A stretch of DNA of 64,000 nt from Bacteroidota bacterium. Lineage in GTDB: Bacteria > Bacteroidota > Rhodothermia > Rhodothermales > Bin80. The notes under the pieces were generated by a model. The model saw nothing but the letters and a program-made list of their open reading frames with translations, ran no database searches and was not told the DNA's origin. Position numbers and translations under genes: made by a program. This document shows positions 10,817 through 30,170 of this stretch, piece by piece; position 1 is the first letter of the stretch; each line of letters opens with the position of its first letter. Location: the NCBI GenBank assembly GCA_028875125.1, contig JAPPGC010000106.1, positions 5,217 through 69,216 on the forward strand. The letters are read 5' to 3'.

Positions 10817-13495
10817 TCAGATCCCCCGAAATCTCCGGTTACGTTCTGCACGTGGTTGCTGGAAACGCAGGAATTCCGCCAGGCGCCCGCTCTTCACGTG
10901 TAAATTAAATCCCCATGACTGGTAAGCCCCAAATGGAATCCAGCGAAAGGACATATTCCAGCACTCAAACTCCTTAGATATATTGAGCGTCGTGGTTACG
11001 ATTTGTTTTCGCTCAAAGTCGTAGCCTGTTTGGCCTCGAACACGCCAAGTTGGGGTTAGACTGAAGTTGAAGCCCGTATTTACAGTGGCCGAACGGCGGA
11101 GGACTAATTGCGGTCGAGTAATTTGATAGACAAAACTTAGATTTAATGACCAGTTTTCGAATCCCCCGGCCCCGCTGGTTTGAGAAAACTGATTGTTGAT
11201 CCCTGCTCCGAAAGGGGGAATCGAGTTGCCGAATTGGGGCATGCCTGAAGTGGCCGTCGGCATGTCTGTTGTACGGGTTCGCACGCGTCCACGCAATTGC
11301 ATACTCCCGCGTACGCTCAGCTGCGTTAGCCGAGCAATCTTCAGATCGCGTAATGAGAAGGCATACTCGTTCACCATGCGACGACCATCAGGGCTCAGTT
11401 TATAGGGTGAAAGGGTGGAACTGAAATTAATGTTGAACTGGCCTAGAATATTAGTACGAGCACTTATGCGTATAGGAGACATTCTGAGCGAGTCTGCCGC
11501 AAGATTATAGCTGCTGGATACGTTCAGCGTGAAGAGCCGGAGAACACGACTTTGATCGGCTCCGGTTGAGTCTATACTCACCCGCTTGGTCTCGAATGTA
11601 TTGTTGACACCAAAACTGATCGCCTTCTGCACGCCACGCTGTACGCCCGTAACAATGTTGTAGCGACGGGGGGTCGGTCCAGTTGCCAGAGTGTCCACAA
11701 CAGGTAGGCCGGCCTCATCCAGTAACGGACGTGTGTATCCCCAAGTATCGCCAGAAAAATCCGGCCGATATGAAAACCCAATATTGGGTCGCACTGTGTG
11801 TCTTAATCCTTGGTATTGTCCAAGTCTGACAGGAAAAAGGCCGTAGATTGTCGTGTTCGCGGATGCTCCCGTATTGAACTGTCTTAGGGCAAAAAAACCT
11901 GGCTCCGTTTTTCTTTCGGTTGTACCGTCGGCCAAAAGCGTTTGGCGCTCAGAAGTAATGAACCAGTCCTCGGTGTAATTCGCGTTTGGCGATAAATTCA
12001 GGCGAACCTGTCCCAATAGAGGTATCTGGCGTATCGCAAACGGAGCCGCGATAGGTACGCGGTGGGTGGCAGCAAAACGAATGCGACCGTCACTCCTGCC
12101 AGTGGCAGACTGGTATTTGTCTCCATCTAGCAACGCCTCAAACCATGAGTAATCAACCGGTTGCCCGTCGGCCAATGTGTCGCCGTTAGCAATCAACTCC
12201 TCGTCTGAGATAGGTCGAAATTCATACCTGTTGTTAATGCGCGACGAAACGCTGTACTGGAGTCGCTCATACCAGCGCTGATTCTGTCCACTGCTGTTTT
12301 CGCGCTTGAAAGGGGCACTGGTTCCTTGAGAAAAAGAAAATTGTGGCAGAGACAATTCGACGCTTCCCGTGGATATCACCTGTTGCTGTCGCATGCTCAA
12401 GGAAATGGATCTGCTTCCTCTGAACGTACGATTGAATTGGACAGAGGAACCGATCGACTGTCTGACATTGTCGTCGTACTGATAAGAAACTGTGCGTAAG
12501 TACGTACTGGAAGTGAGGTTTACGTTGGCACTCAGGCGTGACTTTGGCGAGAAGGTCTGGTTATGGGTCCACCGGAAGCTCAGGTTGTTTCGCTTGACCA
12601 AATCTGGATCATCACGCTCGCCACTTCGCTCGTGAAGGAAATCAACGTTCAGATTGCCACTGAACCGATCCCGCCGATTGTAACGAAAAGCCGGGTTAAC
12701 CTGCCAGCTTCCCTTGGTCCACAGACCAAGGCGGATTTGCGCATCCATATAATTATTCATGGCAAAATACCACCCCCAATTGCGCAGGAAAAACCCCCGC
12801 TCATCTTCTCCATATTCGGGGGCTAGCAGCCCGCTTCTGCGCCCCTCTTGGTAGGGCAGAAAGCCAAAGGGAAGCCACACAGGCGTCGGGATGTTGAAAA
12901 TGAAGAGCTGAATGGGGCCGGTATAGACCCATTTCTGATCAACGACCTTCATTCTGCGGGCACGGAGTGAATAGGACGGGGTCTCATCCGGTCCGCAATT
13001 GCAGGTAGTGTAGAGACCGTCCTTGATAAAGATCGTACTGTCCTCCCGGACTTTTGCTATCTCTGCTTGTATAAAGCCCTCTTCAAACTGCGTTCTTGCT
13101 TCCGTTAAACGTCCACGGCGGGTAGCGATATTGTAAGCCAGTCGTGATACAGTGAAAGTTTCTGAACCCTCAGAGTATACCGGTGCGCCCACGTAGCCCG
13201 AATCTGTGGCAAGCCCTTGTGCGACGAGCTCGTCTTGGTCCAGGAGTAGGGTAATGGAGTGGGCGTTGAGCTGAATGCCCTCGTAGGATACGCTGGCATT
13301 ACCGGTGAGTGTGCCATGATCTCCCTCCCCTGAGCCAAAATGCAGTATCAGGGAATCCCGGGCACTGAATTCTATCGGAGAAGTGGGTGAACCAGCTTCC
13401 TGTGCCCACGTAATCTGGGGAAAAAGCAACAGACCAACAGCGACAAAGCGGAATAATTGTCTTAAAACAACCTCACCGTTTGCGGTTATAGTCAT
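10817..13495 (-). CDS. LptD/OstA-like large outer-membrane beta-barrel protein
   Basis: Signal peptide (LLLFPQITWAQEA), an OstA-like N-terminal beta-jellyroll segment (LTGNASVSYEGIQLNAHSITLL), then about 700 aa of alternating beta-strand pattern ending in an aromatic-rich C-terminus. I chose the start at ATG 13495; it still overlaps the upstream gene by 23 nt. Confidence 0.7.
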   Translation of the reverse strand: MTITANGEVVLRQLFRFVAVGLLLFPQITWAQEAGSPTSPIEFSARDSLILHFGSGEGDHGTLTGNASVSYEGIQLNAHSITLLLDQDELVAQGLATDSGYVGAPVYSEGSETFTVSRLAYNIATRRGRLTEARTQFEEGFIQAEIAKVREDSTIFIKDGLYTTCNCGPDETPSYSLRARRMKVVDQKWVYTGPIQLFIFNIPTPVWLPFGFLPYQEGRRSGLLAPEYGEDERGFFLRNWGWYFAMNNYMDAQIRLGLWTKGSWQVNPAFRYNRRDRFSGNLNVDFLHERSGERDDPDLVKRNNLSFRWTHNQTFSPKSRLSANVNLTSSTYLRTVSYQYDDNVRQSIGSSVQFNRTFRGSRSISLSMRQQQVISTGSVELSLPQFSFSQGTSAPFKRENSSGQNQRWYERLQYSVSSRINNRYEFRPISDEELIANGDTLADGQPVDYSWFEALLDGDKYQSATGRSDGRIRFAATHRVPIAAPFAIRQIPLLGQVRLNLSPNANYTEDWFITSERQTLLADGTTERKTEPGFFALRQFNTGASANTTIYGLFPVRLGQYQGLRHTVRPNIGFSYRPDFSGDTWGYTRPLLDEAGLPVVDTLATGPTPRRYNIVTGVQRGVQKAISFGVNNTFETKRVSIDSTGADQSRVLRLFTLNVSSSYNLAADSLRMSPIRISARTNILGQFNINFSSTLSPYKLSPDGRRMVNEYAFSLRDLKIARLTQLSVRGSMQLRGRVRTRTTDMPTATSGMPQFGNSIPPFGAGINNQFSQTSGAGGFENWSLNLSFVYQITRPQLVLRRSATVNTGFNFSLTPTWRVRGQTGYDFERKQIVTTTLNISKEFECWNMSFRWIPFGAYQSWGFNLHVKSGRLAEFLRFQQPRAERNRRFRGI

Positions 13496-14438
13496 CAATC
13501 TGATCGAATACAAGACTGGCAGCACCAAGCATACCGGCCTCGTTTCCGAGCGTTTCCTGGATTACAACAACGCTCTCGCGCATGCCAGGTTTTATGTACG
13601 ACGCAATAACCTCTCGTACCGGAGTCAATAACAGATCACCTGCATTGGAAACACCACCACCTATGACAATAGTACGTATGTCAAGTAGGTTAATAACGCC
13701 CCCCAATACGCAGCCCAGCTTCCGGCCGGCCCACCTAAGGATTTCGGTGGCGGCGGGGTCCCCATTCATAGCTGCTCCTGCAATTGTGGCGGGTGTGAGA
13801 TGCGACAGTCCCGGAGCTGTATGCAATGAACTCTTGGGGTGTTTCCCTAGAAACTCGCGTGCATGACCAGTCAGGAACCGCTGCCCAAGGTATGCTTCAA
13901 TAGCTCCATTGACACCGGTCATATCCGGTGGGCCATCATAATTAATGGACATATGTCCTATTTCTCCGGCTGCCCCGGTTTCACCTCGAAAGATTCGATT
14001 ATTGAACACGATGGCACCGCCGACCCCCGTACCGAGCGTGATCATGATAAAATGATCATAGTTCCCTGCTGCCCCGTAGCGGCTGGATCCGAGGGCGGCC
14101 GCGTTAGCATCATTCTCAACAAAAATACTCAGGCGTTTACCTAACCGTTTTTTTAGGACTGATCTCAGGTCAACGATGCCCCATCCGGGCATATTTGGCG
14201 GATGAATTAACGATTTTCTGTCGAGGTCAATTGTCCCAGGAGCACCGATTCCTATGCCGAGTATGCGATTCGCGCGTTTGAGGAAAGGTTTTAAGGCCAG
14301 GGATATTTGATCCAGTACATGTTCTTTACCCTGTTCAGCTTCGGTAGGGACTGAATTCGTGTTAATTAGGCCGAATGCATTATGGACCAAAGCGGCTTTA
14401 ATGTTTGTCCCCCCCAGATCAATGCCGATCGCGTGCAT
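13473..14438 (-). CDS. ROK-family glucokinase
   Basis: N-terminal IGIDLGGTNIKAAL ATP-binding motif and ROK signature region (ENDANAAALGS...GTGVGGA). 321 aa. Confidence 0.85.
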   Translation of the reverse strand: MHAIGIDLGGTNIKAALVHNAFGLINTNSVPTEAEQGKEHVLDQISLALKPFLKRANRILGIGIGAPGTIDLDRKSLIHPPNMPGWGIVDLRSVLKKRLGKRLSIFVENDANAAALGSSRYGAAGNYDHFIMITLGTGVGGAIVFNNRIFRGETGAAGEIGHMSINYDGPPDMTGVNGAIEAYLGQRFLTGHAREFLGKHPKSSLHTAPGLSHLTPATIAGAAMNGDPAATEILRWAGRKLGCVLGGVINLLDIRTIVIGGGVSNAGDLLLTPVREVIASYIKPGMRESVVVIQETLGNEAGMLGAASLVFDQIDDYNRKR

Positions 14439-14443
14439 TTTGG

Positions 14444-14752
14444 TTATTCCTCTATTCGATAAACAGTTTCTCCATCGCGTCGCATACCATATTGCTCTCG
14501 CGCGATTTTTTCTATCGTCTCATCGCTTGGCGGGTTTTCTAGCAAAGACTGGAGTTCTGCTATTTCGCTTCTCAATTGCATATTCTCCTCCACCAGCTGC
14601 TCATAATCCCGCTGCCATTTTGATCGCCGGACCAGGCTGTAACTATCAAACCAAGTGAACCAGAGCAATCCTGCAAACATCAGACCGATAAGCAACAGGC
14701 GCGTAAGGCGTCTGCCCATTGAAACATGTTGTGGTGCTGCTGTAGACGCCAT
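14444..14752 (-). CDS. ftsB: Septum formation initiator (FtsB/DivIC family)
   Basis: A single N-terminal TM helix is followed by a coiled coil (QLVEENMQLRSEIAELQ) and a REQYGMRRDGE-type C-terminus. It sits directly downstream of eno, as in many bacteria. Confidence 0.75.
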   Translation of the reverse strand: MASTAAPQHVSMGRRLTRLLLIGLMFAGLLWFTWFDSYSLVRRSKWQRDYEQLVEENMQLRSEIAELQSLLENPPSDETIEKIAREQYGMRRDGETVYRIEE

Positions 14753-14764
14753 GCGCTGTATCTG

Positions 14765-16096
<1,332 letters not shown>

Positions 16097-23790: not shown

Positions 23791-24552
23791 ATGTATAAGT
23801 CAATAACAACTTTGTTTCTCTTGGGGGTGATTGTACTTCCTGTCCGCGCACAGATTGGCGTTGGTGCTGCTGCGCCAGAAGGTGCCATCGTGCTTTTTGA
23901 CGGAACCCGTGAGTCTCTGGACGAAAATTGGACCTACTGGGAAGGTCCCCGTTTCGCGGCTGAATTACCCATAAAATGGGAGATTGTGGATGATCCTGTG
24001 GACGATGGAACAGTCGTAAGCAGTAAGGATCCCTCGGCAGCAGGCGGGCTTTATGGCGCGGCAGACATTGTAACCAAGAATAAATTTCGGGATTTCAGGA
24101 TGCATGTAGAATTCCTGATCACCGAGACGGGCGGGAACAGTGGCGTGTACCTCCAGAATCGCTACGAAATCCAGGTACTTGATGGTGATTCAACCAAGCA
24201 CGGTATGGCTGCGGTTATTAATGAGAAAGAATCTCAGTACTGGCCGTACAATGGTACCGGGCAGTGGAATTCCTATGATGCGGTGTTTCGTGCTGCGCGC
24301 TTTGAGGACGGTGAGCGAACCGAGCGGGCCATGGTCACGCTTTATTTTAATGGAGTAAAGGTGCACGAGAATGTGCCAATTGAAAAGGTATGGGGTGGTC
24401 CAAATTCGGGTATTGATGGAGGCAATGATGAGGGCCGTGGCATCACAGATGTGCCGGGTGGATTAAAGTTGCAGGCCGAAGGCCATGATGTACGATATCG
24501 CAATATTTGGATACAGGGAATAGACCTTATTGAGCCTGACACGGATTTCTGA
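23791..24552 (+). CDS. Secreted DUF1080 (3-keto-disaccharide-hydrolase-like, concanavalin fold) protein
   Basis: Signal peptide, then W...W spacing, FRMHVEF, SGVYLQNRYEIQVLD and a terminal VRYRNIWIQ, which are typical of DUF1080. Confidence 0.75.
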   Translation: MYKSITTLFLLGVIVLPVRAQIGVGAAAPEGAIVLFDGTRESLDENWTYWEGPRFAAELPIKWEIVDDPVDDGTVVSSKDPSAAGGLYGAADIVTKNKFRDFRMHVEFLITETGGNSGVYLQNRYEIQVLDGDSTKHGMAAVINEKESQYWPYNGTGQWNSYDAVFRAARFEDGERTERAMVTLYFNGVKVHENVPIEKVWGGPNSGIDGGNDEGRGITDVPGGLKLQAEGHDVRYRNIWIQGIDLIEPDTDF

Positions 24553-25195
24553 TTTCGGGGAGACACATAGTGGGGATTGCTGCGCTGCGTACGCTGGCGG
24601 TCGTACTTTGGTAAACTAGGGAGTCCTCCCCCAAAGCGTTCAAGACGCACGGGGCGATTGGTTGCTCTCAGGGAGATACCCGCTTAGCACGATGCAAGAC
24701 AACAAAAACCGCGCTGTCTTGTGATCTTGGAGGATCATACTAGCCCAGCAAAATTCGAAATCTTAGGCTACGACTACCTATTCTTCAACTTCCTGATCAC
24801 ACTACACCACACAAGAAATTGCATCTCTTGCAATATACAGGGGGGTAGAACCGGGTGGTTACTCCAGGTGGCACAGGATTCCAAGTGGGGGCACAGCGAG
24901 TCCCGTCGCGTAGCATGGCGTAGGTAGACTACGCTCGCCATGCGAATATTGTAAAGCAACCGGACCATCACACTGCTATAGAAAGACCCCCAAATAAGTT
25001 AGCAACTCACCAAATTATTGTTCCGTCTATTTTATTCTTTATCTGTTATAAATTTAGCAATTTTGGTTATATTACTGTTAATTCACGCTGGGTAATGTCT
25101 TCGGAATTGAGCATTGAAACATCACATTTGCTTATCGGCCGGAGTACGGAGCCAGACCCGGAGACTTCTTTCAAACCCAAACCAAATGCGGACGA

Positions 25196-27601
25196 ATGAA
25201 TAAATCCAACGAAATTGACTCAGAGATCCAGGCACTGCGCGAGCGCCTGTCCACATTGAGCGCAGCGGTTCTGCGTGTCAACTCTAGCCTCGATCTCGAT
25301 ACGGTTCTGCGCGAAATGCTGGCAGGCACGCGTGACCTGGCCGGCGCCCGCTACGGCGTGATCACGAGCATTGATGAGACAGGGCAGCCGCAGGACTACG
25401 TCACCTCCGGCTTTAGCCCGGACGAAGAGCGGCAGTTGATGGAGTGGCCCCCCGGGTTGCGTTTCTTTGAGCACCTCCGCGATCTTCCGGGACCGCTCAG
25501 GCTGACAGACCTGCCCACTTACATCCGCTCCATCGGCTACGACCCGGCCCCGATTCTTCCAAAGACCTTCCAGGCGACCCCGATGCGTCACCGTGGCATG
25601 CATGTGGGAACCTTCTTTCTCGGAAGGAAGCAGGGCGGTCGTGAGTTTACCGATGAGGACGAAGAGGTTCTGGTATTGTTCGCCTCCCAGGCAGCGGCGG
25701 CTATCGCCAATGCCCGCACGCACCGAGACGAGCAGCGGGCGCGCTCGAGTCTGGAAGCCCTAGTCGACACCTCGCCGGTAGGTGTCGTGGTCTTTGATGC
25801 GAAGACCGGTCAACCGGTTTCATTCAATCGGGAGGCGAGGCGGATCGTCGAGGGACTGCGCATGCCCGGTCATGGCGTGGAGCAGCTGCTGGACGTATTG
25901 ACGTGCCGCTTCTCCGACGGGAGTGAAGTGGCCCTTGCGGAATATCCGATCAAACGAGTGATCGACGACGCGGTGACCATGCGCGCCGAGGAGGTCGTGC
26001 TCTCGGTTCCTGATGGCCGAAGAACCACGATGCTCGTCAACTCCACCCCGATCCACGCCACCGGCAATGCAGTCGAGTCAATGATCGTCACTATGCAGGA
26101 TTTGGCGCCATTCCAGGAACTGAACCGGTTGCGGGCGGAATTTCTGGGCATGGTGAGCCACGAACTGCGTGCGCCGCTCGCTGCCATCAAAGGTTCGGCC
26201 GCGACCGTGCTAGGTAGCTCGCGGGTTCTGGACCGAACCGAGATGCAGCAGTTCTTCCGGATCATCGAAGGGCAGGCCGATCATATGGACAATCTGATCA
26301 GCGACCTGCTTGATGCGGGGCGCATTGACTCTGGCACGCTGTCGGTCGACTCCAGGCCAGTGCAGGTGTCCGAACTGGTGGAGCAGGCCCGGACCACCTT
26401 CTTAAGTGGCGGCGGCAGGCAGACCATCCGCATTGACCTGCCGCTGGACTTGCCCCGTGTGATGGCCGACGAACAACGCATTGTTCAGGTGCTGAACAAC
26501 CTCTTCTCAAATGCATCCGTGTATGCTCCCGAGTCGTCGGTCATCCATGTCGATGCGGTGCGTGATGGGGTCTATGTCGCGATTTCGGTAACGGACGAAG
26601 GCCAGGGTGTGTCGCCCGAGCAGTTGCCGTACCTGTTCCAGAAGTACACCGGGGGAGGGGGTCGACGGCAGGGCGTCGGCCTCGGTCTGGCCATCTGCAA
26701 GGGATTAGTAGAAGCCCACGGGGGCCGCATCCGAGCAGAGAACGCCGGACCCGGACAAGGAACCCGGTTCACTTTCACGATTCCAGTGGTCGAGGAGATT
26801 GAACATGGTGCGATGGACATCCCGACGCATGGAGAGCGCACGGATCGACGGAAGCCGCTAGTGCTCGCAGTGGACGATGATCCTCAGTTTCTAGGGCATG
26901 TGCGGGCGACCCTCAACGACGCCGGGTTCAGTCTGCTTACCACAGGCAACCCGAATGAGGTGTCCGACTTGGTTGATGAACACGACCCCCATCTGGTCCT
27001 GCTGGACCTTCTGCTGCCCGAGATGGACGGCATAGAGCTGATGCAACAGGTTCCGGCGCTGGCGGATCGGCCGGTCATCTTCCTGTCCGCATATGGCCGG
27101 GATGAAACGGTTGCAAGGGCCTTGGAGATGGGAGCTGTAGATTACATCGTCAAGCCGTTTTCGCCCACGGAACTGGTGGCCAGGGTCCAGACCGCGCTGC
27201 GCAAGAGCGACGTATTCCCTGAAACGTTCCAGTCGGGAGCTCTTGTGATCAACTACGAAGAACGCCGGGTTACCGTGAGCGAAGTTCCGCTGGAACTCAC
27301 CGCCATTGAGTACGACCTGCTTCGTGTCCTTTCGACCAATGCCGGTCGGGTAGTGACCTACGAAAACCTGTTGCGTACCGTGTGGCGATTGACCGGTCGC
27401 GAAGATAGGCGTCGGGTCAGGGCATTCGTGAAAAAATTGCGAGACAAACTGGGCGATGATGCGGACAACCCAACGTACATCCTAACCGAGCCGCGGGTAG
27501 GCTACCGTATGCCCAGGCCCGACGACACGCCAGATGCCGCGGGTGGGCTTGGGAATGAGGACCCATTGAACTCTCAGCGCGCAGAGGGCGAGGCGAGCTA
27601 G
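25196..27601 (+). CDS. Soluble hybrid sensor histidine kinase fused to a complete OmpR-type response regulator (GAF-PAS-HisKA-HATPase_c-REC-wHTH)
   Basis: H-box SHELRAPL, N-box NNLFSNASVY, G-boxes DEGQGV and GVGLGLAICK. REC domain with VDDDP, LLDLLLPEMDG and VKPF. C-terminal winged helix (LTAIEYDLLRVL...EPRVGYRM). No hydrophobic TM stretch. The DNA is visibly GC-rich. Confidence 0.9.
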   Translation: MNKSNEIDSEIQALRERLSTLSAAVLRVNSSLDLDTVLREMLAGTRDLAGARYGVITSIDETGQPQDYVTSGFSPDEERQLMEWPPGLRFFEHLRDLPGPLRLTDLPTYIRSIGYDPAPILPKTFQATPMRHRGMHVGTFFLGRKQGGREFTDEDEEVLVLFASQAAAAIANARTHRDEQRARSSLEALVDTSPVGVVVFDAKTGQPVSFNREARRIVEGLRMPGHGVEQLLDVLTCRFSDGSEVALAEYPIKRVIDDAVTMRAEEVVLSVPDGRRTTMLVNSTPIHATGNAVESMIVTMQDLAPFQELNRLRAEFLGMVSHELRAPLAAIKGSAATVLGSSRVLDRTEMQQFFRIIEGQADHMDNLISDLLDAGRIDSGTLSVDSRPVQVSELVEQARTTFLSGGGRQTIRIDLPLDLPRVMADEQRIVQVLNNLFSNASVYAPESSVIHVDAVRDGVYVAISVTDEGQGVSPEQLPYLFQKYTGGGGRRQGVGLGLAICKGLVEAHGGRIRAENAGPGQGTRFTFTIPVVEEIEHGAMDIPTHGERTDRRKPLVLAVDDDPQFLGHVRATLNDAGFSLLTTGNPNEVSDLVDEHDPHLVLLDLLLPEMDGIELMQQVPALADRPVIFLSAYGRDETVARALEMGAVDYIVKPFSPTELVARVQTALRKSDVFPETFQSGALVINYEERRVTVSEVPLELTAIEYDLLRVLSTNAGRVVTYENLLRTVWRLTGREDRRRVRAFVKKLRDKLGDDADNPTYILTEPRVGYRMPRPDDTPDAAGGLGNEDPLNSQRAEGEAS

Positions 27602-28142
27602 AGGTTCGGGAGTTGCGGGAGGTACCATCAGAGCTGATTCAGACCTGATGCGCCAGACGGAGTGTGCTGGCTGTCAACCCATCGGCCATGTGATACCATT
27701 CGCCCAGCCGCGTGATTTCGGAATTGACCCGGTCCAATCTTCACAATAGTCTAGATCGGTCCGGACAGTATCGGCGAGCACACGGGATCCGCGCGTTATA
27801 TGGGGCTGGCAAAACCCACAGCAGTTGCTGACGGGGGTGGTGGAAGCCACGATCTATCGGATCCGGCTTGCGATCGCGAACCAACGAGACCATGGATCCA
27901 TTCTTGTGGGGACGAAACATCATCGGAGGTCGACGAATTGGAGGTCCCGCGGCGCGTGCCAACGTACCCTTCTTCTCGGTAAATCGATGGAACGATAGGA
28001 AAATTCTCCAGTCAATGCCAGAGGCTGGAACGATGGTATAAACTATCGCCCATAGTTGGAACCCTGCCATACTATACTATGAGGGCTCTCCATGACCTGG
28101 AAGCGCCTATGAGGGGCGTTGTTTTGTAGAACGTCGCCTGCA

Positions 28143-30170
28143 TCAGGCAGGAACGCCAACCTTAGCGGGGAGTCGATCGGCGACAATTTCCGCGATATCC
28201 TTCACATCCGGGCCGTCTACTGTTTTTGCTGCAGCGTCGCGAAGCATCGTCAGGCAGAACGGGCAAGCAGTAGCTACGGTACTGACGCCCGTAGCTGCTG
28301 CCTCAGCGTAGCGTGTTTCATTGATTCTTGGTACCGGTTCATCCATCCACATTTGTGCTCCTCCCGCACCGCAGCAAAATGATTTTTTTCGGTTGCGTGG
28401 CATTTCAGTTATGACTGCCCCAGACTCTTCGAGAACCGATCGGGGAGCCTCGGTGATATCGTTCTGCCGTCCCAGATAGCAGGGATCGTGCAAAGTGACA
28501 TTTTCTTCAAGGTCATCAGTCGGCAGGCGTCCGGCGTCCGCAAGTTCTGACAGAAGCTCAGTGTGATGGATCACTGTATAGTGTCCGCCTAAAGCAGAAT
28601 ACTCGTTGCCCAGAGTATGCAGGCAATGAGGACAGGTGGTCATTATTCGGGGTGGATTCACTGAATTCAGTGTTGCGATATTGGCTGAGGCGAGTTCTGA
28701 GAACAGATATTCGTTGCCACTCCTGCGTGCTGAGTCTCCACTGCAGCGTTCCTTGCTTCCCAAGACGGAGAAGCTAACCCCAGCAGCTTCAAGCACGCGC
28801 ACCAGCGCACGGGCTGTTTTCTGGGCGCGTTGGTCATATGAAGGGGCGCATCCCAACCACCATAGAATTTCGGCATCAGGTTGTTGTTCAACAGTTGGGA
28901 CGACCAGGCCGTCAGCCCATTTCAGCCGGTCTCCAGCCCCCATGTTCCATGGATTGCCGTTACGCTCCATGCCCTGGTAAACTGTCTCCAGTTCCTCCGG
29001 GTATTGATCTTCCATCAGAACCAATCCACGTCGAATCTCCAGGATATCGAGCATCGGAGCGTTCGCTACGGGACAAATCGCTGTACAGGCACCGCAAGCG
29101 GTGCATGCCCACACAGCGGACTCGGTGATGGCATATTCGGTAAGCATCGCGTCGGGCGGTTTTCCCGAAGCCAGATCATGAAGGTTTTCGTTGATGAAGT
29201 AGCGTTTGTTGATCTCGAGAGCCGCAGGTGACAATTCCTTGCCTGTTTCGCATGCCGGGCAGACATCCTGGCATCGATTACACATAATGCAGGCGAATGC
29301 GTCAGCAATACCCGACTGCGGAAGTTGTTCAAGTTTTAATGCTCCAAAGACTTCAATATTTTCATTCGAAAAATCAATCGGGTCAAGTGCACCGGGCGAT
29401 TTCCGGTCTATCTGTGTGGCGAAGTTGAAGCCGGACATAATAAAATGCACGTGCTTCGTGTATGGGAAATAGGGAGCAAAGGCCAAGATCAATCCTAGCG
29501 CCCCCCACCAGCATACGTGATGCCAGATCGTCAGCGTATCTGTCCCCAATCCTGCCCAGATTGGAGCAATTGCAGAGGCAATTGGTTGCCAGGGATCAGG
29601 GGAATGCAGTTGAATGGCCACGGATTCACCCAGCACGCGGAACCCCACATGGCACAAAATAAAAATGCCGACGATCAGAGAATCACGTGATACCGTTTGG
29701 TTGAGGAAGGAGAGCCGGGAATTCTTGATTCGGAGGACATTCGCCCGCTGTGAGAAAACCTTGCGTCCAGGAAACACAAAGCGTCGCAGCAGGAGCCATG
29801 CCATGGCCAGCAGCACTGCGCCGCTGGCAAGATCAACCGCAAGGCGGTAGCTTTGACTGATCCAGTCTGGAAATAGGACAGGTTCGTCAACATAACCACG
29901 GATCACATCTACGACATTGACCAATAGGTATAGTACGAATCCCCATGCGAGTGCTGCGTGTACGGCACCGGTAATGCGCCGTGTTCCCCAGATTGGACGC
30001 ATTACAATCCATGTACCGAGCGCACGAATCGTACGTTGCCAGTCCGTTGAGAGAGAGGGCGCCTGGCCGTAACGTATAGTTCGAAACATCGCGGAAAAGC
30101 CCAAGCTCGTGCCGTATGCAGTGAAGATCACCGCAAGGGCAAAGAGTGCTTTTTCCGTCAGGGTCAGCAT
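28143..30170 (-). CDS. Membrane-bound Fe-S oxidoreductase: NarI/DsrM-like polytopic domain fused to 2x[4Fe-4S] ferredoxin and two CCG (HdrD/DsrK/GlpC-like) domains
   Basis: About 5-6 N-terminal hydrophobic helices with conserved His. Ferredoxin motifs CIMCNRCQDVCPA and CTACGACTAICPV. Cysteine-rich CCG-type motifs (ERCSGD...CPHC; SFCCGAGG...CPFC). Confidence 0.8.
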   Translation of the reverse strand: MLTLTEKALFALAVIFTAYGTSLGFSAMFRTIRYGQAPSLSTDWQRTIRALGTWIVMRPIWGTRRITGAVHAALAWGFVLYLLVNVVDVIRGYVDEPVLFPDWISQSYRLAVDLASGAVLLAMAWLLLRRFVFPGRKVFSQRANVLRIKNSRLSFLNQTVSRDSLIVGIFILCHVGFRVLGESVAIQLHSPDPWQPIASAIAPIWAGLGTDTLTIWHHVCWWGALGLILAFAPYFPYTKHVHFIMSGFNFATQIDRKSPGALDPIDFSNENIEVFGALKLEQLPQSGIADAFACIMCNRCQDVCPACETGKELSPAALEINKRYFINENLHDLASGKPPDAMLTEYAITESAVWACTACGACTAICPVANAPMLDILEIRRGLVLMEDQYPEELETVYQGMERNGNPWNMGAGDRLKWADGLVVPTVEQQPDAEILWWLGCAPSYDQRAQKTARALVRVLEAAGVSFSVLGSKERCSGDSARRSGNEYLFSELASANIATLNSVNPPRIMTTCPHCLHTLGNEYSALGGHYTVIHHTELLSELADAGRLPTDDLEENVTLHDPCYLGRQNDITEAPRSVLEESGAVITEMPRNRKKSFCCGAGGAQMWMDEPVPRINETRYAEAAATGVSTVATACPFCLTMLRDAAAKTVDGPDVKDIAEIVADRLPAKVGVPA

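Follow-up and report, generated by a model that had tools for sequence, protein, structure and literature searches.

The hybrid two-component systems (HTCS) of Bacteroides combine a sensor, a HisKA/HATPase kinase, a receiver and a DNA-binding output in one polypeptide chain, and signalling in cis has been established for them (Gao, Wu and Stock 2024; PMC11253607). The same set of functions is found in an 801-amino acid (aa) protein encoded by a Rhodothermales genome of the phylum Bacteroidota (GenBank assembly GCA_028875125.1). Its gene lies in the interval 24553-28142 of a 64,000-nucleotide stretch of contig JAPPGC010000106.1 (positions 5,217 to 69,216), the whole of which is called the window here. 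Cis signalling is presumed for this protein as for HTCS, and in both the tethered DNA-binding domains must stay silent without stimulus. HTCS, however, sit in the membrane, sense through periplasmic domains and have outputs of AraC type, while the window protein is soluble, has a GAF/PAS-like sensor and carries an output winged helix of OmpR/PhoB type; no match to HTH_18 or HTH_AraC of Pfam was found in its 801 aa. HTCS also adjoin polysaccharide utilisation loci. The gene described here forms instead a single-gene cassette with a putative operator of its own: the insert carries no other gene and no SusC/SusD locus is adjacent, the immediate neighbours being a DUF1080 hydrolase and an iron-sulfur (Fe-S)/CCG-domain protein. 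As three features that define HTCS are absent, the protein is not a member of that group.

The receiver and Trans_reg_C part resembles PhoB, MtrA and RpaB, whose NCBIfam models it covers at full length (MtrA 163 bits, RpaB 144, PhoB 136), and the boxes of the candidate operator are phased by 11 bp, as is typical of pho-box-like direct repeats. In contrast to those regulators, it is covalently fused to a kinase. All NCBIfam matches, to named kinases as well as to MtrA, RpaB and PhoB, stay below the equivalog cut-offs, so that the 801-aa protein is orthologous to no named regulator or system.

The interval is read here, with a probability of roughly 75%, as a horizontally acquired insertion with a one-gene signalling cassette, a fused kinase-regulator that would regulate itself via its own operator. 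As deduced from the sequence, the product would be a soluble histidine kinase of homodimer type fused to its own OmpR-family response regulator. Its GAF domain, of DevS-like fold and without the haem histidine, would read a cytoplasmic cue together with the PAS-like domain. The kinase would autophosphorylate H322, the phosphoryl group would pass to D604 inside one protein or dimer, and the winged-helix domains would bind four phased boxes before the gene's own promoter, the gene in this way regulating itself. The cassette would have entered the Rhodothermales genus once, out of a multi-phylum pool of sponge symbionts. Later movement inside the genus would have brought it to an insertion hotspot in the lineage of G000, G010 and G017 (genomes, contigs and loci are cited by handles in G, C and L; G000 is the genome holding the window, with 3.32 Mb in 129 contigs and 51.2% G+C). 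Solo copies of its control module, which stand beside accessory genes, would either be additional sites of action of the regulator or represent a promoter unit that is portable and spread likewise.

The fused kinase-regulator and its sensor domain

Five domains of the 801-aa protein score above the Pfam gathering threshold (Table 1). An earlier note, made from the letters of the DNA alone, had recognised in this open reading frame (ORF) every module of a two-component pathway in one chain, with an H-box, N/G boxes, a receiver with its acceptor Asp and a carboxyl-terminal winged helix; the ORF and the domain scan bear this out, receiver and winged helix included. HisKA (E 4e-15) contains the H-box SHELRAPL with H322; in 201 aligned family members the His and Glu of this box never vary. 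The N, G1 and G2 boxes of HATPase_c (E 3e-24; N435, N439, D467xGxG471, G495xG497) are conserved in the same alignment, and the receiver pocket D560/D561/D604/S631/K653 is conserved in 200 of the 201 members. Residues H322, E323, N435, N439, D467, G469, G471, G495, G497, D560, D561, D604, S631 and K653 are invariant or near-invariant, as is the carboxyl-terminal RVGYRM. No match to the defence models of PADLOC was found.

The proposed GAF-PAS sensor stands as far as GAF is concerned. PAS models match weakly at residues 186-233 (E ~0.005), below threshold in the G000 copy, and PAS domains (PF00989, PF08448) are recorded in many relatives of more than 60% identity. The 19-residue Kyte-Doolittle mean reaches at most 1.04 over the whole protein, which agrees with the absence of a transmembrane segment noticed before, and the protein is considered soluble on this ground. 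Soluble, with all domains in one chain and its catalytic residues kept, it probably is the self-contained cytoplasmic signalling device that had been suggested.

The ratio of non-synonymous to synonymous substitution rates (dN/dS) is 0.11-0.24 between the gene and six other copies of the genus; together with the conserved catalytic residues this low ratio indicates that the gene is intact and under purifying selection. Replacement of a TAG stop by TTG at codon 791 lengthens the protein from 790 to 801 aa, an 11-aa carboxyl-terminal extension unique to the G000 copy.

Hybrid kinases commonly feed histidine phosphotransfer (Hpt) relays. The target of the kinase might be a separate regulator, or the receiver might depend on another kinase, the protein then acting as a phosphorelay node with no signalling in cis, and G000 does have two other kinase/OmpR-type pairs. 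Such a role is nevertheless quite improbable: Pfam detects no Hpt domain in the 801-aa protein, the DNA-binding output directly follows the receiver as in Bacteroides HTCS (PMC11253607), and the cassette was transferred as a single gene into hosts with few other two-component genes. 

The GAF domain matches GAF-A of DevS (DosS) and DosT of Mycobacterium tuberculosis. A phmmer search of the PDB gave E 2e-18 for 4ynr and 2w3d and E 2.5e-12 for 2vzw, the next solved GAF following at E 5e-4. The alignment to DevS is gapless over ~145 residues, residue n of DevS being n-30 here. The domain appears to share the DevS fold and to lack its known haem site, since the equivalents of the proximal ligand His149 and of the distal Tyr171 are changed. 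Of the 201 members, 190 have Leu, Pro or Arg at the His149 position, and none of the residues counted there is His. Other residues of the domain (W84, H93, R102, D105, M130 and H132) are kept in at least 92% of members, and beta-hairpin geometry suggests that M130 and H132 face the same side as DevS Tyr171.

Sponge tissue alternates between oxic and anoxic states, and a sensor binding haem as DevS and DosT do would make the protein an O2/NO/CO sensor. This is unlikely in view of Pro119 at the position of His149, where no member counted has His, of the Tyr171 to Phe change and of the loss of Glu87 and His89, even though the match to DevS/DosT GAF-A is far better than to any other solved GAF and the conserved M130 and H132 would lie on a strand facing the haem pocket. 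The kinship with DevS and DosT is in any case limited to the GAF-A fold. The mycobacterial proteins carry tandem GAF-A/GAF-B domains, a HisKA_3 kinase and a separate NarL-type regulator, DevR, while the protein of the window has one GAF domain followed by a PAS-like domain, a HisKA kinase and a fused OmpR-type output.

The insertion and its spread

The gene had been described in the earlier note as GC-rich and bracketed by ORF-poor gaps, and both descriptions are correct. Its G+C content is 60.6%, compared to a mean of 51.4% for 2.4-kb windows of the genome (standard deviation, sd, 2.0; z 4.5, top 0.02%). G+C at third codon positions (GC3) is 0.713 versus 0.524 ± 0.046 in long ORFs (z 4.1), that at first positions (GC1) is raised by 2 sd, and that at second positions (GC2) is normal (0.432 versus 0.436). 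The gene is thus outside the spread of its genome, and the excess is synonymous, which points to foreign codon usage and not to amino-acid content. The flanking gaps measure 643 bp and 541 bp, the first including a stretch of 21.7% G+C at 25021-25080. Of the pile-up of long antisense ORFs reported inside the gene, three ORFs of 89-167 aa exist, which makes it a modest one only.

In G003 and G006 (~73% nucleotide identity) only ~100 bp separate the DUF1080 gene from the Fe-S gene. This empty site identifies the kinase interval of G000 as an insertion. G001 (86% identity) has a different insert of 10.5 kb at the same place (~140-10740 of L036, G001:C1:1506000-1521999), coding for PSCyt1/PSCyt2/PSD1, DUF1501, a DDE_Tnp_1 transposase and two DUF5128 beta-propellers. 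Native flanks are common to G001 and G000 up to ~24618 on the left and from ~28075 on the right, which delimits the variable segment of G000 to ~24619-28074. The DUF1080/Fe-S intergenic site appears to be an insertion hotspot. All same-genus genomes searched have the Fe-S gene itself, with the exception of G014, a fragmentary one.

Of the relatives, only two close ones, G017 and G010, have the kinase locus at this site; the others lack an orthologue there, in line with the horizontal acquisition that had been proposed. G017 is a single contig of 3,552,915 bp ('chromosome: 1') with a syntenic copy, 94% identical over 17 kb, which rules out mis-assembly or a chimeric contig. In G010 (99% identity) a contig breaks inside the kinase gene and its 3' remnant is found at a contig start.

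Within the genus the gene is found in six of 24 species (G000, G016, G017, G018, G020 and G022), the remnant in G010 suggesting a seventh. There are three copies in G017, and several copies plus fragments in G018. Copies lie at different loci, those of G016 and G020 differing from that of G000, and the stretch common to them runs from ~24900-24935 to ~27650, or to 27817 for the G017 copies. Between G000 and G018 the kinase gene is 85% identical and the flanking Fe-S gene 71%, which shows that the gene moved between species of the genus. A tblastn search of G000 with the fusion protein retrieved only two other kinase/OmpR-type pairs (C116 ~50-51.6 kb and C110 ~7.4-8.8 kb), and the two-component repertoire of this 3.3-Mb genome seems to be very small.

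Outside the genus, a protein database search with at least 8000 scored candidates, 120 of them listed as relatives, retrieved full-length proteins with this architecture, whose identity went down to 63% in the matches listed. The architecture appears to define a family with thousands of database members, contrary to the earlier view that kinase-receiver-OmpR fusions are uncommon. Relatives are encoded by 543 stretches of species-representative genomes. The best 80 of these 543, taken as loci for comparison, code for full-length proteins of 57-65% amino-acid identity and belong to at least 10 phyla. Their hosts are Acidobacteriota (Vicinamibacterales, Terriglobia, Bryobacterales, Aminicenantes and 'Ca. 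Versatilivorator'), Alpha-, Gamma- and Deltaproteobacteria, Spirochaetia, Binatia, Latescibacterota, Gemmatimonadota, Nitrospirales and others. Genomes of the other phyla frequently have two to eight gene copies, and the gene is richer in G+C than its flanks in most hosts.

A maximum-likelihood tree intermixes the phyla, with 22 label changes against a minimum of 8, and some cross-phylum clades are found at short distance, such as the Versatilivorator and Xanthomonadales copies with branch lengths of ~0.07-0.08. All Rhodothermota copies group in a single clade (support 100), and the sister of this clade is a Vicinamibacterales copy (support 98). The mixed-phylum tree supports the claim of horizontal acquisition together with composition and the empty site. 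The family appears to be large and unstudied and to have been passed between many bacterial phyla.

The gene could alternatively be an old vertical resident lost by most species, its high G+C resulting from selection on the protein. G000, G010 and G017 have it at the same locus, and by Fe-S-gene identity the six gene-bearing species and G010 form one subclade, G018 excepted; that the gene is richer in G+C than its flanks in many hosts could mean an intrinsic bias. Vertical residence is, however, largely refuted by the data and has to be considered very improbable: GC2 is normal and the excess lies at GC3, the loci of G016 and G020 differ from that of G000, identity with the G018 copies is 85% where the housekeeping flank reaches 71%, G003 and G006 have nothing at the site and G001 has another insert there, and the Rhodothermales clade is nested among copies of other phyla. 

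No strictly conserved neighbour gene was found across the 80 loci; recurrent neighbour classes are paralogous copies, ankyrin-repeat proteins and repeat-rich giant proteins. In G017 as well as in other phyla, ankyrin-repeat genes stand back-to-back with the kinase gene (L052, L053, L086 and L107). Repeat-rich giant proteins that look Calx-beta-like by eye are neighbours at L042, L087 and L106, other repeat giants at L047 and L070, and adjacent second copies of the gene at L064, L066, L101 and L115.

The link to sponges comes from bin80 (of the same genus, identical to G022) and bin65, which are metagenome-assembled genomes (MAGs) of Aplysina aerophoba symbionts (PMC5649159), and from a GPP34+P450 fusion encoded by G000, an architecture ('GPP34_L') reported only from sponge symbionts (PMC11706023). 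Some other record names (RHO1, COS4, APA and the SB0661 bins) resemble labels given to sponge MAGs. Laterally transferred genes of sponge microbiomes (eukaryote-like repeat proteins, restriction-modification and CRISPR systems, GPP34; PMC8163846, PMC11706023) resemble the kinase gene in their cross-phylum presence in sponge-symbiont MAGs, in trees that conflict with taxonomy and in their company of ankyrin, adhesin-like, defence and GPP34-P450 genes. The kinase-regulator would add a regulator class to that gene pool as published: neither of the two papers mentions histidine kinases or two-component systems, and no paper tying this architecture to sponge symbionts was found in the literature. 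Signal-transduction genes are depleted in sponge symbionts according to Slaby et al. (PMC5649159). One self-contained sensor-regulator would here be maintained at ~60% identity over many symbiont phyla, under purifying selection, despite few two-component genes.

Control region and solo modules

A promoter-operator-leader module of ~270 nt precedes the gene in all genus copies and contains an AT-rich core with four boxes, whose start-to-start spacings are 11/21/11 bp (Table 1). Phased boxes are the expected arrangement of an OmpR/PhoB-type operator, and these four are likely the auto-operator of the gene. An imperfect hairpin at the 5' edge of the module (24913-24943, GCATGGCGTAG...CTACGCTCGCCATGC) is not kept in the other genus copies. 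The ATG (25186) of a short upstream open reading frame (uORF) at the other edge is kept in genus copies and in solo modules, where a different sequence follows it.

Nearly all of the 80 loci of other phyla have an AT-rich dip of 20-40% G+C at 150-210 nt upstream of the start, present even in hosts of 65-70% G+C, and their alignment displays the 11/21/11 pattern too, with GTGA boxes. A strict regular expression for the boxes found them in 26 of the 80 loci, a 22-fold enrichment. It was superseded by a nucleotide hidden Markov model (HMM) trained on L044-L080 and run on both strands of the held-out loci of ~14 kb. In 18 loci the best match of this model lies on the coding strand, 60-320 nt ahead of the gene; individual E-values are marginal, and the evidence thus resides in the positional agreement. 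Operator and gene appear to move together across phyla.

An HMM of the block common to the genus copies revealed further copies in G000, on C99, C116, C6, C45, C54, C53, C70, C57 and C63. The promoter-leader module is complete on C45, C70, C6 and C53, and on the first three of these contigs similarity stops at one point, ~5 nt before the would-be kinase ATG. Modules are present in nine of the 24 genus genomes, namely the six with the gene, G010 with its 3' remnant and two fragmented assemblies, G014 and G019, the latter with a module right up against the end of a contig; none was found in the 15 genus genomes without the gene. They outnumber the gene, 7 to 3 in G017 and 8 to 1 in G022. In diverged solo copies it is the operator core that survives best, still 74-84% identical after the flanks have lost their similarity. 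In 22 of 23 solo copies a divergent ORF no shorter than 100 aa begins 60-800 nt upstream, and three of the four most GC-rich windows of G000 adjoin a module. On C99 an ORF of 328 aa, identified by eye as an IS5-like transposase (~11905-12891, minus strand), starts 118 nt downstream of the diverged solo module.

The solo modules might be either further operator sites, of an accessory regulon for host interaction and defence, or a portable promoter unit or its footprints. In the second case they would be a selfish or passively spreading promoter repeat, or remains of the cassette, rather than targets, and the regulator would control only itself or nothing of consequence. Their common end point on C45, C70 and C6 gives them the look of a discrete unit, they occur in accessory and defence islands and beside the IS5-like transposase of C99, their dispersal at BLAST level is confined to the genus, and most have no co-directional downstream gene. 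This view is a possible one but somewhat doubtful, as the operator core is the best-kept part of diverged solo copies, the divergent ORF at 22 of 23 copies mirrors the ankyrin and giant adhesin-like genes beside the kinase gene in other phyla, and modules are found only in lineages carrying the gene.

A more ambitious reading of the solo modules as targets, put forward as a speculation that is unlikely to hold in full, is that gene and dispersed modules form a transmissible regulon kit of the sponge holobiont. A GAF pocket rebuilt around Met130, His132, His93 and Trp84 would read a cue of the host tissue (redox, gas or metabolite), and the modules would control GPP34-P450, beta-propeller, Cas3, restriction-modification, ankyrin and giant adhesin-like genes. 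Such a kit would explain the joint spread of gene and operator over at least 10 phyla. Should the gene control host-interaction genes such as GPP34-P450 or those of the adhesin-like giants, the sponge-symbiont lifestyle would have its first candidate for a master switch. The system would also be experimentally tractable, with one gene and a 270-nt control module that can be moved into a laboratory host. It would offer a natural example of a fused kinase-regulator transferred with its operator as a plug-in unit.

Several observations weigh against the reading of the interval as a transferred, self-regulating cassette of sponge symbionts. No integrase, transposase ORF or terminal (inverted) repeats that would explain movement were found in the insert. 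The Rhodothermales boxes are GTTA and not the GTGA of other phyla, the cross-phylum HMM gave no match in the window itself, and a scan for sigma-70-type promoters found no site, although the phylum may use other promoter types. Apart from the look of some record names, the evidence of a sponge habitat is confined to bin80, bin65 and the GPP34+P450 of G000. The scarcity of co-directional genes downstream of solo modules makes a simple regulon, in which each module drives the next gene, unsuited. BLAST detects no solo modules in an Acidobacteriota genome that has 8 copies of the gene, so that dispersal at this level is specific to the genus.

Other features of the insert

Table 1. Position and nature of the features in the window and of the solo modules elsewhere in G000
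Feature	Position	Strand	Basis or remark
DUF1080 / 3-keto-disaccharide hydrolase, secreted, left native flank	23791-24552	+	PF06439, E 1.6e-29; syntenic in G003, G006 and G017
Native intergenic flank, common to kinase-less G001	24553-24618	.	blastn (24481-24613 = L036 1-133) and sequence comparison
Lineage-specific inserted segment, ~3.46 kb	24619-28074	.	comparison with G003, G006 and G001
Diverged copy (77%) of 192-bp dispersed repeat, GGGGCG...ATATACAGGGG	24651-24848	+	sequence comparison across G000 contigs
Promoter-operator-leader module of kinase gene, ~270 nt	24925-25192	+	kept in every genus copy; also solo in other parts of G000 and in kinase-bearing relatives
AT-rich operator core, four phased boxes	25034-25082	+	sequence; predicted
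Box 1	25034		ATTCTT (GTTCTT in relatives)
Box 2	25045		GTTATA
Box 3	25066		GTTATA
Box 4	25077		GTTAAT
Five-codon uORF, ATG CGG ACG AAT GAA TAA (MRTNE*)	25186-25203	+	overlaps kinase start codon out of frame; read from sequence
Kinase-regulator gene	25196-27601	+	801-aa soluble GAF / PAS-like / HisKA / HATPase_c / REC (receiver) / Trans_reg_C protein
GAF domain, GAF_2, aa 32-171	25289-25708	+	Pfam E 1.6e-13; homologous to DevS/DosT GAF-A, without its haem ligands
Equivalent of DevS His149 (proximal haem ligand)			Pro119
Equivalent of DevS Tyr171 (distal pocket)			Phe141
Equivalent of DevS Glu87 (hydrogen-bond network)			Thr57
Equivalent of DevS His89 (hydrogen-bond network)			Ile59
PAS-like linker domain, aa ~186-300	25751-26095	+	Pfam PAS, PAS_8 and PAS_10 sub-threshold, E ~0.005
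Kinase core, HisKA aa 313-380 (H322) and HATPase_c aa 425-531	26132-26788	+	Pfam
Receiver, Response_reg aa 556-665; D560, D561, D604, S631, K653	26861-27190	+	Pfam E 1e-25
OmpR/PhoB-type winged helix, Trans_reg_C (PF00486) aa 698-772	27287-27511	+	E 7e-19, full length
Codon 791, TTG (stop TAG in all other genus copies)	27566-27568	+	alignment
3' tail of copied unit	27602-27817	.	~27602-27650 common to all genus copies; up to 27817 only in G017 copies
Remaining part of insert	27818-28074	.	found only in G000, G010 and G017
Native flank with terminator-like hairpin of Fe-S gene (28102-28120, then T-run)	28075-28142	.	
Membrane Fe-S / CCG-domain protein, right native flank	28143-30170	-	Pfam CCG and Fer4
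Solo module, divergent gene GPP34+P450	C70		
GPP34 + cytochrome P450 fusion, 684 aa, 60.5% G+C	C70 ~12778-14832	-	start 355 nt from solo module, divergent
Solo module, divergent gene Cas3	C63		
Solo module, divergent gene Eco57I-like methylase	C45		
Solo module, divergent gene SNF2/ResIII helicase	C57		
Solo module, divergent gene beta-propeller with type IX secretion system (T9SS) tail	C54		
Solo module, divergent gene DUF5128 propeller lipoprotein	C6		
Solo module, divergent gene Peptidase_M15 lipoprotein	C99		

The part of the insert beyond the copied unit (27818-28074) contains a 109-aa ORF on the minus strand with no Pfam match. A scan of 24400-28300 against Rfam at E <= 1 gave no match.

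The earlier note had also pointed to a weak direct repeat of 14 nt flanking the segment. Both 14-mers exist. They match at 10 of 14 positions only and are not the ends of the island, and the pair was rejected as attachment (att) site or target duplication, each belonging to another feature. The left 14-mer is the first 14 nt of the 192-bp dispersed repeat, and the right one lies within the terminator hairpin of the Fe-S gene, a hairpin that G001, which has no kinase gene, also possesses.

The 192-bp repeat (GGGGCGTTTGGTTGC...CTTACAATATACAGGGG) has no terminal inverted repeat, and its copy in the window gave no Rfam match. It might be a non-autonomous element, a palindrome-associated transposable element (PATE) of IS200/IS605 type or a small RNA gene. 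Two copies stand in tandem on C80 (50-429), with an overlap of GGGG between units. The assembly breaks in the repeat at 11 ends of 10 contigs (C9, C16 at both ends, C18, C21, C48, C63, C66, C90, C99 and C125).

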